From IMG/VR virus record IMGVR_UViG_3300023314_000006, positions 1 through 33,627 of that record: a stretch of DNA of 33,627 nt; one strand, 5' to 3'. This DNA comes from a virus (taxonomy: Duplodnaviria > Caudoviricetes). This document shows positions 2-11,707 of this stretch, in pieces (position 1 is the first letter of the stretch; each line of letters begins with the position of its first letter). The notes below the pieces were generated by a model. The model was not told where the DNA came from, did no database searches, and worked only from the letters and a program-made list of their open reading frames with translations. A program made the translations under genes and the position numbers.

Positions 2-622
2 ACTTTGATCTGATTTGTATTTTTTGCCGTGTTCAGTCTTCCTGTATTCTTTCCAGTTAACCCATAATTTCAGATATGTATCCGAGGTGAACGGGTGAAT
101 AACTTGGGGGGGGGCGGGGGGAGGGGGGGGCTGACTTGAGGGATTTGTTTTTGGTTGATCGGTTGGCTGTTGACCAAACTCCGCGCCTCCTTTCCCTTCC
201 TTTCCCTTCCTTTCCCTTCCTTTCCCTTCCCCTGCGATAAGAGTACTATCAAAAGTCTTTTTATAGTCTATTGAATTAACTGTTTGATATTCAGGTAATT
301 GAGATTCCTTTTCATTAAACTTGTCTATTTTTTGATGCTTAGTAAAATTCAATATCTGTATGCACTTTATTTCTATATCTTCGATAAAACCGACATACCT
401 TTTTATAAAATCGCTCTCATGAAGCTGAATAAGTGCAAAGTCTACATCGCATTCATCGTAAGGCAATATCTCTGCTTTTATCCTTTTTGGCCTATCCTCC
501 AATCTCCCTTCTCGGTCTGCATGGTTCCATAGACCAATGAATAAAAGCCGGTATATGGGATCAAGTTCGGCTAACTGCTCGTTTTTGAAAAACTCGGGTT
601 TAATGGTTCGTATTCTGGCCAT
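2..622 (-). CDS. Phage replication initiator protein, N-terminal part; runs off the left window edge
   Basis: Not in the ORF track. Manual translation from ATG at 622 is open to the edge: MARIRTIKPEFFKNEQLAELDPIYRLLFIGLWNHADREGRLEDRPKRIKAEILPYD...NFTKHQ...GEGKGRERKGKEGKG...WKEYRK. MARIRTIKPEF, LW..AD.EGR, F.KHQ and the EGKG linker are typical of this phage initiator family. Confidence 0.85.
   Translation of the reverse strand, partial: MARIRTIKPEFFKNEQLAELDPIYRLLFIGLWNHADREGRLEDRPKRIKAEILPYDECDVDFALIQLHESDFIKRYVGFIEDIEIKCIQILNFTKHQKIDKFNEKESQLPEYQTVNSIDYKKTFDSTLIAGEGKGRERKGKEGKGGAEFGQQPTDQPKTNPSSQPPPPPAPPQVIHPFTSDTYLKLWVNWKEYRKTEHGKKYKSDQS
189..230. repeat. Tandem 10-bp repeat (TTTCCCTTCC)x4 encoding the G/K/E/R linker of the initiator
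   Basis: Directly visible. Confidence 0.95.
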
Positions 623-641
623 GAGTTAAATTAAATAAAAA

Positions 642-720
642 ATCCCCGTTAAGGTTCAGGCCCGCCAGCCGTCACCCCAACAGGGATAAAATGTCTTACA
701 ATCAGCAATGGCGGTCGCTG
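642..720 (-). ncRNA. Putative structured leader RNA (two hairpins with complementary loops) upstream of the initiator
   Basis: Hairpin CAGCGA-CCGCCA-TTGCTG, then a 14-bp stem (with G-U pairs) capped by GGC-TGGCGG-GCC, then a T-rich tract. Confidence 0.6.
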
Positions 721-733
721 TTAAATTGTTACG

Positions 734-765
734 CTAAGTTACGAAAAACCATTCACGTGTGCAAA
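734..765 (-). promoter_or_regulatory. Bacteroidota sigma-A-type promoter
   Basis: TTTG-N20-TAACTTAG on the minus strand, a near match to TTTG/TAnnTTTG. Confidence 0.65.
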
Positions 766-895
766 TATTTTGTCTCAATTATATCCTATTGTTGCGACCG
801 GATCACGTTTCTTTTACAGCGAAAAAGATACTTGACCAATTAAAAAAACTGGCAACCAAATAGAAGAGTCGGTTAAAGAAGCTGCAAAGAAACCC

Positions 896-1564: not shown

Positions 1565-2539
1565 TTAAAAAAGTGATGGAGCTTTTTGAAATCTTAGCTT
1601 ACATAGTTTCATATTCTCTATAGCCTGTTTAAAGTAGGTATCTTTAAGCTCTACACCTACTCCTTTTCGGCCTAAAGATACGGGGCTGTACACTTCACTG
1701 CCTACACCCATAAAAGGCGTAAATACGGTTTCTCCGGGGTTGCTGTATAGTTCAACACAACGGTCTATTACATCGAGTTGCAAGGGGTGTACATGCTTTT
1801 CATCGTCCTCATCTTTTGCATCACGGAACGGGAGTACGTTGTCTATCCTTATATCATCCCATACAGATGAGGCGTAACGCTGCCAGATGATGTGAGATAG
1901 TTTGTTTGTCTTAGGGTCTTGCCATCCTTCATAGTCTTTCTTTAGCTTTTCGTATGTACCGTATGTTTCAGTATGACCCTCTAAAAATGGTCGCTCACCA
2001 AAGTATTCGGTAAGACCTACAGGGTGTGTTACCGGAACTTCATTTACCCCGTTTCGCTTGAATATAAGCAGATAATCTGGCATGGCCGTAAAGCACTCTG
2101 TACTATCTTCTACTATCAGTTTGTGCATCAGTGACTTTACCATAGTACGCATACGAACTTTTAATGGCTCCTTCCATATGGTTACAGTATTCCGATGCGC
2201 AAACCCGTGTTTCTGATGCAGTTTTTTCACCTCATGCGGCAAGTCGTACATGTTACCGTCTTTGCCTATTATGTCAGTGATGTGAACGCAATTGATACGC
2301 CCCGGATTTGTGACCCTTGCCATTTCCTTTATAAGAAATTCATATTGCTCAAGGAATTGCTCTTTGCTTGTGCAATTACTAAAGTCGTTATCATGGCTAC
2401 TGTAATTATACAGACCTCCAAAAGGCGGAGAATATATAGACAGGTCAATAGACTTATCAGGAAGTGTAGGCAGTACGTACATGCAATCTCCTTCATAGAT
2501 CGCGTAATTGTCGGTTATTATTTGGTTTCTTACAGCCAT
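1565..2539 (-). CDS. Amino (N4-C/N6-A) DNA methyltransferase, beta arrangement
   Basis: Motif IV DLSIYSPPF, then HVHPLQ, then SAM-binding motif FTPFMGVGSE. Confidence 0.92.
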   Translation of the reverse strand: MAVRNQIITDNYAIYEGDCMYVLPTLPDKSIDLSIYSPPFGGLYNYSSHDNDFSNCTSKEQFLEQYEFLIKEMARVTNPGRINCVHITDIIGKDGNMYDLPHEVKKLHQKHGFAHRNTVTIWKEPLKVRMRTMVKSLMHKLIVEDSTECFTAMPDYLLIFKRNGVNEVPVTHPVGLTEYFGERPFLEGHTETYGTYEKLKKDYEGWQDPKTNKLSHIIWQRYASSVWDDIRIDNVLPFRDAKDEDDEKHVHPLQLDVIDRCVELYSNPGETVFTPFMGVGSEVYSPVSLGRKGVGVELKDTYFKQAIENMKLCKLRFQKAPSLF

Positions 2540-3888
2540 GATGGTGTTGATATTGATTTATTAAATGGTGATTGTTTTATTTCGTACTTGGCATTAAGGT
2601 TAGCATTAAGGCTGTTGAATAATTCATTTGCCTTTGTTGTTTTAACCTCTATAGATTTTAGCACCCTTGATTGACCGTTACTGCTTACCCTGTCTGCAAT
2701 TACTTCTTTTTGCTGTCCGTACCTCCAAAATCTGCGTATGGCCTGATACCATTTTTCATAGCTGAAATCAGGGAAATATACCGTATGGTTGCAGTGTTGC
2801 CAGTTAAGTCCGAATGCGGTTATAGTTGGCTTTGTGACCAGTTTTTTTATTTCTCCATTTGCGAATGCAAGTAGTATCTCTTCTTTTTTGTCGATGTGCA
2901 TACTACCTGTTATCTGTATCAGCGACTTATCCATCTTGCAAAGCGTTTCAGCCTCCGGGTTATAGTTCACCCAGAAAACTGATGTTTCGTGTTGCGTAGC
3001 CAGTGATATAGCTTTTTCGCACCGTTCATTTATTGTGGCTTTTTCTTCAAAAGATATTTCAGAACGGGTACGGGCTATCCTGTTGAATAGTTCTCCTGGT
3101 AAAGGCTTCCTGTTAAGTATTACGTGGTCATTAACTACCAATTCAGGCAAAGTAAATCCATCGTCACTAAATCCAAGGTCTGACGGTTTACGCATGGATA
3201 TACTCCATCCGCTTACCCACTCGAAAAACGCTTTTTTGGCATGACCTTTAAGTATCCATTCTGTTCCTATATGCTGCGGGCTTATCGTATCTTCATTATT
3301 GGTGAAGAACTTTGTGAGCATATCCGTGTATCCTAAGTAACCCAATGCCTCGGAGCTGGTACCCAACTCTGTAAAGTCATTAGGCGAGGGTGTAGCGGTG
3401 AACAGGTAGCGATATTTTACTTTCTTCAAAAAGGCGGTGATGCGTGTTTTTAGTTCCCCTTTGAAGTTTTTGAGTATGCTACTTTCATCGAGTATTACGC
3501 AATCAAAATCGCTTGGGTCAAAGTGCTGTAGCCGTTCGTAATTGGTAACTACTATTTTTGATTTGTACTTTCCATCCTTGCTATACTCGATATCGTCTAT
3601 CTCGAATTTGGCAGACTCTTTTATAAACTGAAAAGCAACTGCCAAAGGAGTAAGGATAAGAGCGGGCTTGTTGGTATGCCTGATGTAGTTTACCGCCGTG
3701 ACAAGCTCAATGATAGTTTTCCCGTGTCCTGTATCAAGAAAACATGCCGCCCTGCCTTTTTCTATAGCATAATTAGCCACGTACTTTTGTTGCGGGAATA
3801 ACTTGTCAGGAATATATAAGGCGGGTATTCCTTGCCGTCCTATGCTGTGCTTTTTTGTTTCTAAAAACTGTTCGTATGTTAGTCCCAT
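2530..3888 (-). CDS. SNF2-like superfamily 2 helicase
   Basis: Walker A DTGHGKT, Walker B ILDESS, TATPSPND, FGLNWQHC, QAIRRFWRYGQ. Confidence 0.9.
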   Translation of the reverse strand: MGLTYEQFLETKKHSIGRQGIPALYIPDKLFPQQKYVANYAIEKGRAACFLDTGHGKTIIELVTAVNYIRHTNKPALILTPLAVAFQFIKESAKFEIDDIEYSKDGKYKSKIVVTNYERLQHFDPSDFDCVILDESSILKNFKGELKTRITAFLKKVKYRYLFTATPSPNDFTELGTSSEALGYLGYTDMLTKFFTNNEDTISPQHIGTEWILKGHAKKAFFEWVSGWSISMRKPSDLGFSDDGFTLPELVVNDHVILNRKPLPGELFNRIARTRSEISFEEKATINERCEKAISLATQHETSVFWVNYNPEAETLCKMDKSLIQITGSMHIDKKEEILLAFANGEIKKLVTKPTITAFGLNWQHCNHTVYFPDFSYEKWYQAIRRFWRYGQQKEVIADRVSSNGQSRVLKSIEVKTTKANELFNSLNANLNAKYEIKQSPFNKSISTPSWL

Positions 3889-3899
3889 AAAATAAGAAA

Positions 3900-3978
3900 T
3901 GCCCGTTCTAACTTATCCATCTGGTACACGGAGTTTGTTATTACGGGCAAATGATTTTTAATGCAGTACCAGTGCATT
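3900..3978 (-). ncRNA. Putative structured leader RNA (two hairpins with complementary loops) upstream of the helicase
   Basis: Hairpin AATGCA-CTGGTAC-TGCATT, then interrupted stem TGCCCGT...TCCGT-GTACCAG-ATGGA...ACGGGCA, then a T-rich tract. Confidence 0.6.
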
Positions 3979-3987
3979 TTAGTTGTG

Positions 3988-4019
3988 CGAAGTTACGTCA
4001 TTAATACGGATATTTCAAA
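3988..4019 (-). promoter_or_regulatory. Bacteroidota sigma-A-type promoter
   Basis: TTTG-N20-TAACTTCG on the minus strand. Confidence 0.65.
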
Positions 4020-11621: not shown

Positions 11622-11652
11622 CAAAAGTAATACAGGGGATTGGAACTACAAA
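11622..11652 (-). promoter_or_regulatory. Leftward early promoter
   Basis: TTTG-N19-TACTTTTG. Confidence 0.8.
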
Positions 11653-11676
11653 ATTTATTTTATTTTTTATTTGCAA

Positions 11677-11707
11677 TTTGGTTTTTCGGATTTAATTAGT
11701 ACATTTG
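11677..11707 (+). promoter_or_regulatory. Rightward early promoter
   Basis: TTTG-N19-TACATTTG. Confidence 0.8.

Follow-up and report, generated by a model that had tools for sequence, protein, structure and literature searches.

The leader of the replication initiator

The DNA analysed here is the complete 33,627-base virus record IMGVR_UViG_3300023314_000006 (the window). At one end, cut by the end of the contig, lies a minus-strand gene for a phage replication initiation protein (Rep), and the element under study is the leader between the start codon of this gene (ATG at 622) and an upstream promoter. An earlier note, made from the letters alone, had described a promoter, two hairpins separated by a 15-nt linker, a T-rich tract and the ATG; each of these parts is present where it was placed (Table 1), and the identification of the gene as a replication initiator is borne out by a protein family match. 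The downstream box of the promoter, TAACTTAG, differs at one position from the consensus TAnnTTTG, and transcription would start near 727-730. Hairpin 2 comprises a 14-bp outer stem with three G-U pairs, a 3x3 internal loop (GAC/UGA, a tandem GA) and a 3-bp inner stem, and carries the loop UGGCGG at 667-662. This is, as claimed, the exact reverse complement of the hairpin 1 loop, CCGCCA, while the flanking stems add no pairing; because the loops pair fully and the flanks do not, the pairing is loop-to-loop and not strand exchange. In the ViennaRNA fold a U-G pair forms across loop 2, giving a GGCG tetraloop, and the 6-nt loop requires that pair to be open.

The 103-nt leader folds to -36.1 kcal/mol on the sense strand (z -3.98, equalled by one of 200 shuffles), compared with -22.9 kcal/mol (z -1.54) on the opposite strand. 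This asymmetry and the G-U pairs of the outer stem agree with the earlier view that the structure acts as RNA rather than as a DNA cruciform. A search of the window against Rfam gave nothing at gathering score, just three chance-level matches at E ≤ 10, and blastn of the leader against GenBank phages returned short chance matches only. A scan for sigma-70 promoters and terminators found none, as is expected from the Bacteroidota type of the promoter and the long stem.

A second leader of the same design precedes the gene for an SF2/SNF2-like helicase, downstream of which lie genes for a DNA methylase, a small phrog_24909 protein and a DUF1064 protein. Its promoter overlaps the stop codon of the open reading frame at 4262-3993. 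Both leader promoters have the non-canonical box CGTAACTT(A/C)G in common, while four other clear promoters of the window have TAnnTTTG; among 79 promoter-like boxes in the window, these two are followed by kissing-loop leaders. Upstream of the initiator leader promoter, at 812-822 and 794-799 (minus strand), the sequences TCGCTGT and GGTCGC complement the 5' arm of hairpin 1, which they could unfold on a transcript reading through from the helicase operon. This copy is the best of 58, and only four of the 58 elements rank so high, so such sites are not family-wide.

Table 1. Positions of the leaders, genes and promoters in the window
Feature	Position	Strand	Basis or remark
Phage replication initiation protein, cut by contig end	2-622	-	phrog_16167, E 2e-47
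Weak third site GCCAG behind ATG, 5 bp complementary to CUGGC of loop 2	615-619	-	best of 59 start regions
U tract (six T at 642-637, then ATTT) and A/U-rich spacer to start codon	623-642	-	sequence
Hairpin 2, predicted intrinsic terminator	642-687	-	sequence and fold
Single-stranded A/U-rich linker, 15 nt	688-702	-	sequence
Hairpin 1, CAGCGA-CCGCCA-TTGCTG, 6-bp stem, loop at 714-709	703-720	-	fold; compensated stems in L082, L083, L163
Promoter TTTG (765-762), 20 nt, TAACTTAG (741-734)	734-765	-	one mismatch to TAnnTTTG
SF2/SNF2-like helicase, first gene after second leader, minus strand	2530-3888		protein family match
Second leader	3889-4019	-	fold z -3.95
Second leader, hairpin 2, loop GUACCAG, weaker U tract after	3900-3949		sequence and fold
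Second leader, hairpin 1, loop CUGGUAC	3960-3978		sequence and fold
Second leader, promoter TTTG-N20-TAACTTCG	3988-4019		sequence
Canonical TAnnTTTG-type promoters	6645, 7973, 11652	-	sequence scan of window
Canonical TAnnTTTG-type promoter	11677	+	sequence scan of window

Recurrence and covariation across phages

The family came to light in a scan of loci holding neighbouring genes or other initiators, which looked for a promoter box, a hairpin and a terminator-like hairpin and did not require complementarity between the loops. Among 285 distinct loop pairs, 33 match over at least 6 nt, where loops mixed between elements predict 1.3, so that the match is not a product of chance. When the detector was loosened, the terminator apex matched upstream sequence over at least 7 bp in 67 of 474 promoter-plus-terminator candidates (3.2 expected). 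None of 139 such layouts in 800 kb of host chromosomes of the same phylum (nine to ten genomes) has a loop match; as the phage loci were picked near replication genes, this contrast denotes enrichment in phages and not absence from hosts. Removal of redundancy left 61 elements with 56 different kiss sequences, and exclusion of L202 as a chance hit (a 53-nt linker, no open reading frame) left 60.

The loops change together. In the three closest relatives of the initiator leader all six of six loop pairs are kept, with compensated stems (L083, CCGCCA/UGGCGG; L082, CUGCCA/UGGCAG; L163, CCCACA/UGUGGG). Eleven members of another subfamily were aligned on sequence alone. In their kiss helix, 85 of 88 cells are paired and six of the eight columns have two-sided, compensatory changes, a level reached by none of 500 shuffles; slid controls give 20-42%. 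Hairpin 1 is just 40% paired in alignment A4, which is attributed to gap placement around its variable loop. Covariation between the loops, the lack of which the note had named as a refutation, is therefore strong. Judged by these comparisons of sequence, the leader family is a real and widespread RNA element, its design kept in dozens of phages while the loop letters change.

All five genomes of cultured Flavobacteriia phages that were fetched carry the leader at the head of a replication operon (Polaribacter phage Danklef_1, Olleya phage Harreka_1, Flavobacterium phages tooticki6-1 and elemoA_1-9A, and Cellulophaga phage phi19:3), and tooticki6-1 has two. Rfam did not match the elements of 11 further loci and three whole phage genomes. 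The leaders of the initiator's own homologues, at loci that are mostly GC-rich, gave one match among 80 viral loci and none among 80 metagenome and four genome loci; the single match, on the reverse strand inside a gene, is likely to be chance. The earlier description as a leader of the initiator therefore stands for its position in this window but not as a property of the initiator family. By sequence context, it heads DNA-metabolism operons of Bacteroidota-type phages in general.

Other searches added little. Of 20 loci picked out by a DNA pattern scan, two were real and already found (L260, the same as L163, and L263, the same as L083). A profile without base pairs, made from an alignment of 39 sequences and run on 150 genomes with only 25 candidates scored in each, yielded one 6-bp match that lacked the typical design, and six prophage stretches from host genomes held no typical element. 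In a prophage-like region (G180; L462, ~1368-1490) a variant was seen by eye in which hairpin 2 is large and branched and contains an 8-nt match to the loop of hairpin 1.

Shared anatomy and downstream genes

Across the 60 elements, the spacing from loop to loop is always 36-55 nt (median 44). The linker, with a median of 18 nt and 84% A+U, is unstructured; in four of the longest linkers (L088, L215, L303 and L307), an additional small hairpin brings the single-stranded part back to its usual length. Below loop 2, 51 elements have an internal loop that is symmetric or nearly so, and in 29 of these it contains a tandem GA. The sense strand gives the more stable fold in 56 of the 60, and G-U pairs number 93 on the sense strand against 43 on the antisense strand. 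No position around the kiss is more than 65% conserved.

The start codon follows the stem at a median of 19 nt, and a T run directly at the stem base is found even where the ATG is 40-55 nt away. Family figures for the U tract and the promoter box are partly circular, since the detectors required both, but one count was repeated without the U filter: at least five T occur in the eight nt after the stem in 63 of 75 members, whereas an A tract before the stem occurs in only five. With this polarity, hairpin 2 has the look of an intrinsic terminator that works in one direction.

Thirty-nine of the 55 listed downstream proteins were scanned, a set biased by the choice of loci. Eleven have their top match in DNA metabolism (initiator, helicase, primase-polymerase, RecT, and HNH and GIY-YIG endonucleases), two have such a match lower down, nine match only unknown families and 17 match nothing; no structural-gene or transporter match occurs among the 39. 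An HNH or GIY-YIG endonuclease gene lies directly behind the leader at seven loci (L082, L107, L156, L163, L266, L270 and L458), and some of these genes are placed between leader and initiator.

A proposed model of attenuation

The reading favoured here, at roughly even chances, is that the conserved two-hairpin leader works as a transcription attenuator in which the kiss in cis favours read-through. Loop 1 would pair with loop 2 as the latter emerges from RNA polymerase, the short linker would then keep the base of the predicted terminator open, and transcription would enter the replication genes. If the kiss were missed, the terminator would close and an RNA of ~95 nt would be released, the decision having to fall within the ~25 nt transcribed between loop 2 and the eighth U. 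The note had offered an attenuator or a released RNA of about 90 nt; a single device probably yields both. The anatomy, the covariation, the recurrence, the one-way U tract and the gene context are observed, whereas use of this promoter, termination and kissing in cis are inferences, as is the direction of the effect, which is drawn by analogy with the guanidine-IV riboswitch.

The geometry was approached with a rough A-form model, in which hairpin 2 is fully closed and the stretch of the linker is expressed as a fraction of its contour. At bends of 0, 45 and 90 degrees the median stretch is 0.83, 0.78 and 0.65; the initiator leader requires 0.89-0.69 and the second copy more than 1.0. Taller hairpins do not come with longer linkers (rho -0.25 to -0.32). 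Because the linker is short relative to the height of hairpin 2, being about as short as the hairpin is tall, kissing is likely to strain the base of the terminator.

Several points weigh against attenuation by the kiss. The A-form model is crude, and at a 90-degree bend most members could keep both the kiss and the full stem. The kiss, at about -10 kcal/mol, is much weaker than hairpin 2 (-26), and any antitermination must therefore be kinetic. The U tract of the initiator leader is imperfect and 12 of 75 members have fewer than five T, while A/U-rich stretches before an ATG are expected in Bacteroidota anyway.

The input that would set the switch is guessed, in the first place, to be the released RNA working in trans; a protein, or purely kinetic tuning, are other candidates. 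The free loop 2 of the released RNA could capture loop 1 of nascent leaders with the same loop code, which would give negative feedback. More tentatively, and on balance doubtfully, the leader might be a ligand-free, sequence-coded analogue of a riboswitch, whose released RNA signals to its own nascent copies, with each loop code a private feedback channel. If so, it would count phage genomes or the time since infection and shut off replication operons, and could exclude phages with the same loop code. At loci with two elements the loop codes differ in four of four cases, and one close pair (L371 and L372) has swapped loops in a nearly unchanged frame. In a comparison aimed at fast diversification of the loops, kiss identity in three similarity bins is 1.00, 0.75 and 0.76, against 0.99, 0.84 and 0.70 for hairpin 2, figures affected by binning bias and by the non-independence of pairs.

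Alternative explanations

A post-transcriptional role is possible but unlikely: the leader would stay on the mRNA, where the kiss would protect the 5' end or keep loop 2 off the start codon, and the T-rich tract would mainly be a translation-initiation region. The short distance from stem to ATG suits such a role, and in six of 59 elements, the initiator leader included, loop 2 pairs best with its own start region. The site behind the initiator ATG is partly dictated by the Met-Ala-Arg start of the protein; a clear copy of loop 1 touching the start codon, in effect a three-site version, is seen in L156 (4016-4131) and L357 (~2900-3003). Set against these cases, such third sites are not family-wide, pairing with the start region showing no overall signal (mean -3.19 against -3.16 kcal/mol, median rank 0.55), L083 has identical loops before an unrelated gene, and the T run stays at the stem base when the ATG is distant.

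It is rather doubtful that the ~95-nt terminated RNA is itself the product, with kiss and full stem coexisting so as to compact or stabilise a small RNA or to favour termination, and with an antitermination protein of phage or host origin, perhaps one binding the tandem-GA loop, determining read-through. The strong hairpin 2 with its U tract, the frequency of symmetric and tandem-GA internal loops, and the bent kiss that is geometrically possible for most members would all fit. Nevertheless, there is no conserved sequence with which to address a common target, no antiterminator gene was identified among the window proteins scanned, and the linker does not lengthen with taller hairpins.

Control by a convergent antisense RNA has a known precedent. 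In the rep leaders of IncI-alpha and IncB plasmids, a loop-initiated intramolecular pseudoknot with variable loop codes precedes the replication initiator, and control is translational, through a leader peptide and a convergent Inc antisense RNA. The phage leader shares the theme of loop-initiated pairing ahead of an initiator with variable codes, and an antisense copy would match both loops. Unlike the plasmid case, there is no ATG between the phage promoter (734) and the initiator start to open a leader peptide, and a convergent promoter is not enriched: opposite-strand boxes downstream occur at nine of 58 elements against 22 of 174 control windows, full opposite-strand promoters at five of 58 against 17 of 174, and none lies on the plus strand of the window at 1-1440. 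Such control is accordingly considered very unlikely.

Although the topology is that of guanidine-IV, a small-molecule riboswitch of that type is extremely improbable. The loop letters are free, with 56 kiss sequences in 61 elements and flanks at most 65% conserved, which makes a ligand pocket unlikely; Rfam gives no match, and the downstream genes belong to DNA metabolism or unknown families, with no transporter match. A DNA-level structure (a cruciform or single-strand signal) or chance can practically be dismissed: the element adjoins a replication gene, but its G-U strand asymmetry, fixed place behind a promoter box, one-way U tract and compensatory evolution all speak for RNA.

Comparison with known systems

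The c4 system of phages P1 and P7 is related to the CI system of satellite phage P4. In P4, a small RNA derived from the leader, CI RNA, pairs with complementary leader sequences (seqA and seqC) and brings about premature termination of replication genes (PMC4825925), the same logic as the feedback in trans guessed at above. In the available text of that report CI RNA is processed from the leader and has targets upstream and downstream, whereas the phage leader has two loop sites of 6-8 nt in ~95 nt, a downstream third site in only ~6 of 59 elements, and no match to the Rfam c4 models. One Rep homologue (L060, ~1311-1500) has a sigma-70-type promoter and a long terminator-like hairpin, two stretches of which complement upstream leader sequence, reminiscent of the two-site pairing of c4 and CI.

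Another close likeness is to guanidine-IV (the GGAM-1 or mepA motif). In the accessible portions of the reports, antitermination by kissing hairpins that stretch the linker has been proposed and supported (PMC7736828, PMC11611296), and extending the terminator stem is reported to leave a shorter linker and impede kissing (PMC11611296). Guanidine-IV and its Gd4v variant (PMC7736828, PMC11611296, PMC9788692) share with the phage leader the two hairpins joined by a loop-loop pseudoknot, a 3' hairpin that is an intrinsic terminator with a U tract (predicted from sequence in the phages), and the proposed stretching of the linker that stops the outer terminator pairs from closing. By analogy, the leader likely works as that riboswitch does. 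It is not a member of the family: guanidine-IV has highly conserved loop nucleotides that form the ligand pocket and is described before sugE- and mepA-type genes on bacterial chromosomes, while the leader has free loop letters and no Rfam match, is carried by phages, and precedes genes for replication, recombination and endonucleases.

From what is accessible of the other reports, the zipper-type attenuator cATT of pLS20 (PMC13401043) is likewise a leader attenuator without a known ligand, but its whole stems pair by strand exchange, whereas pairing in the phage leader is confined to the loops. The tug-of-war riboswitches (bioRxiv 10.64898/2026.06.17.733018) also antiterminate sterically rather than by strand exchange, but require a structured element no more than about 5 nt before the terminator, where the phage leaders have a spacer of 15-20 nt. 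A catalogue of ~10,000 viral candidate RNAs includes, in its accessible part, RNAs of Bacteroidetes phages as well as RNAs preceding initiator-like genes (PMC10690425), and may hold single hairpins of this family. A published description of a kissing-loop terminator leader was not found in a full-text literature search, most subscription papers being outside its reach.

It seems that the leader is a frequent and so far uncatalogued means of controlling replication operons among phages of one of the major bacterial phyla. Because only geometry and complementarity are kept, it would escape motif searches based on sequence. The steric antitermination by kissing loops that has been proposed for guanidine-IV could be tested on dozens of natural examples, among them cultured phage-host pairs in Polaribacter, Olleya, Flavobacterium and Cellulophaga, and the family may also supply orthogonal RNA switches for Bacteroidota.

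Host and other features of the window

Proteins encoded in the window include a portal, a Clp-type protease, a major capsid protein, a CHAP lysin, RecT, an exonuclease, a helicase and methylases; no integrase or repressor was recognised among those scanned. The promoters of the window have the form TTTG-N19-21-TAnnTTTG, which is the Bacteroidetes promoter consensus, and the two relatives of the Rep that bear an organism name come from Chitinophaga and Flaviaesturariibacter; the host is therefore taken to be a member of the Bacteroidota. At 11624-11706, canonical promoters of this type stand back-to-back and split the genome into two arms. DNA of the window is present in two leaf-litter sequencing runs, one of which may be its source, and a contig from the second run spans 520-1154 with zero differing letters.

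The C-terminal part of the Rep, used alone as a query, found no relative. A contig titled as a Methylococcaceae metagenome-assembled genome (L240) encodes a Rep 68% identical to protein P0002, and is possibly a mis-binned phage. Within the initiator gene, at ~186-230 (minus strand), lie tandem GGAAGGGAAA repeats, at which the otherwise identical database protein P0001 changes frame in a manner consistent with one 10-nt unit fewer; this loss is consistent with either slippage or assembly.
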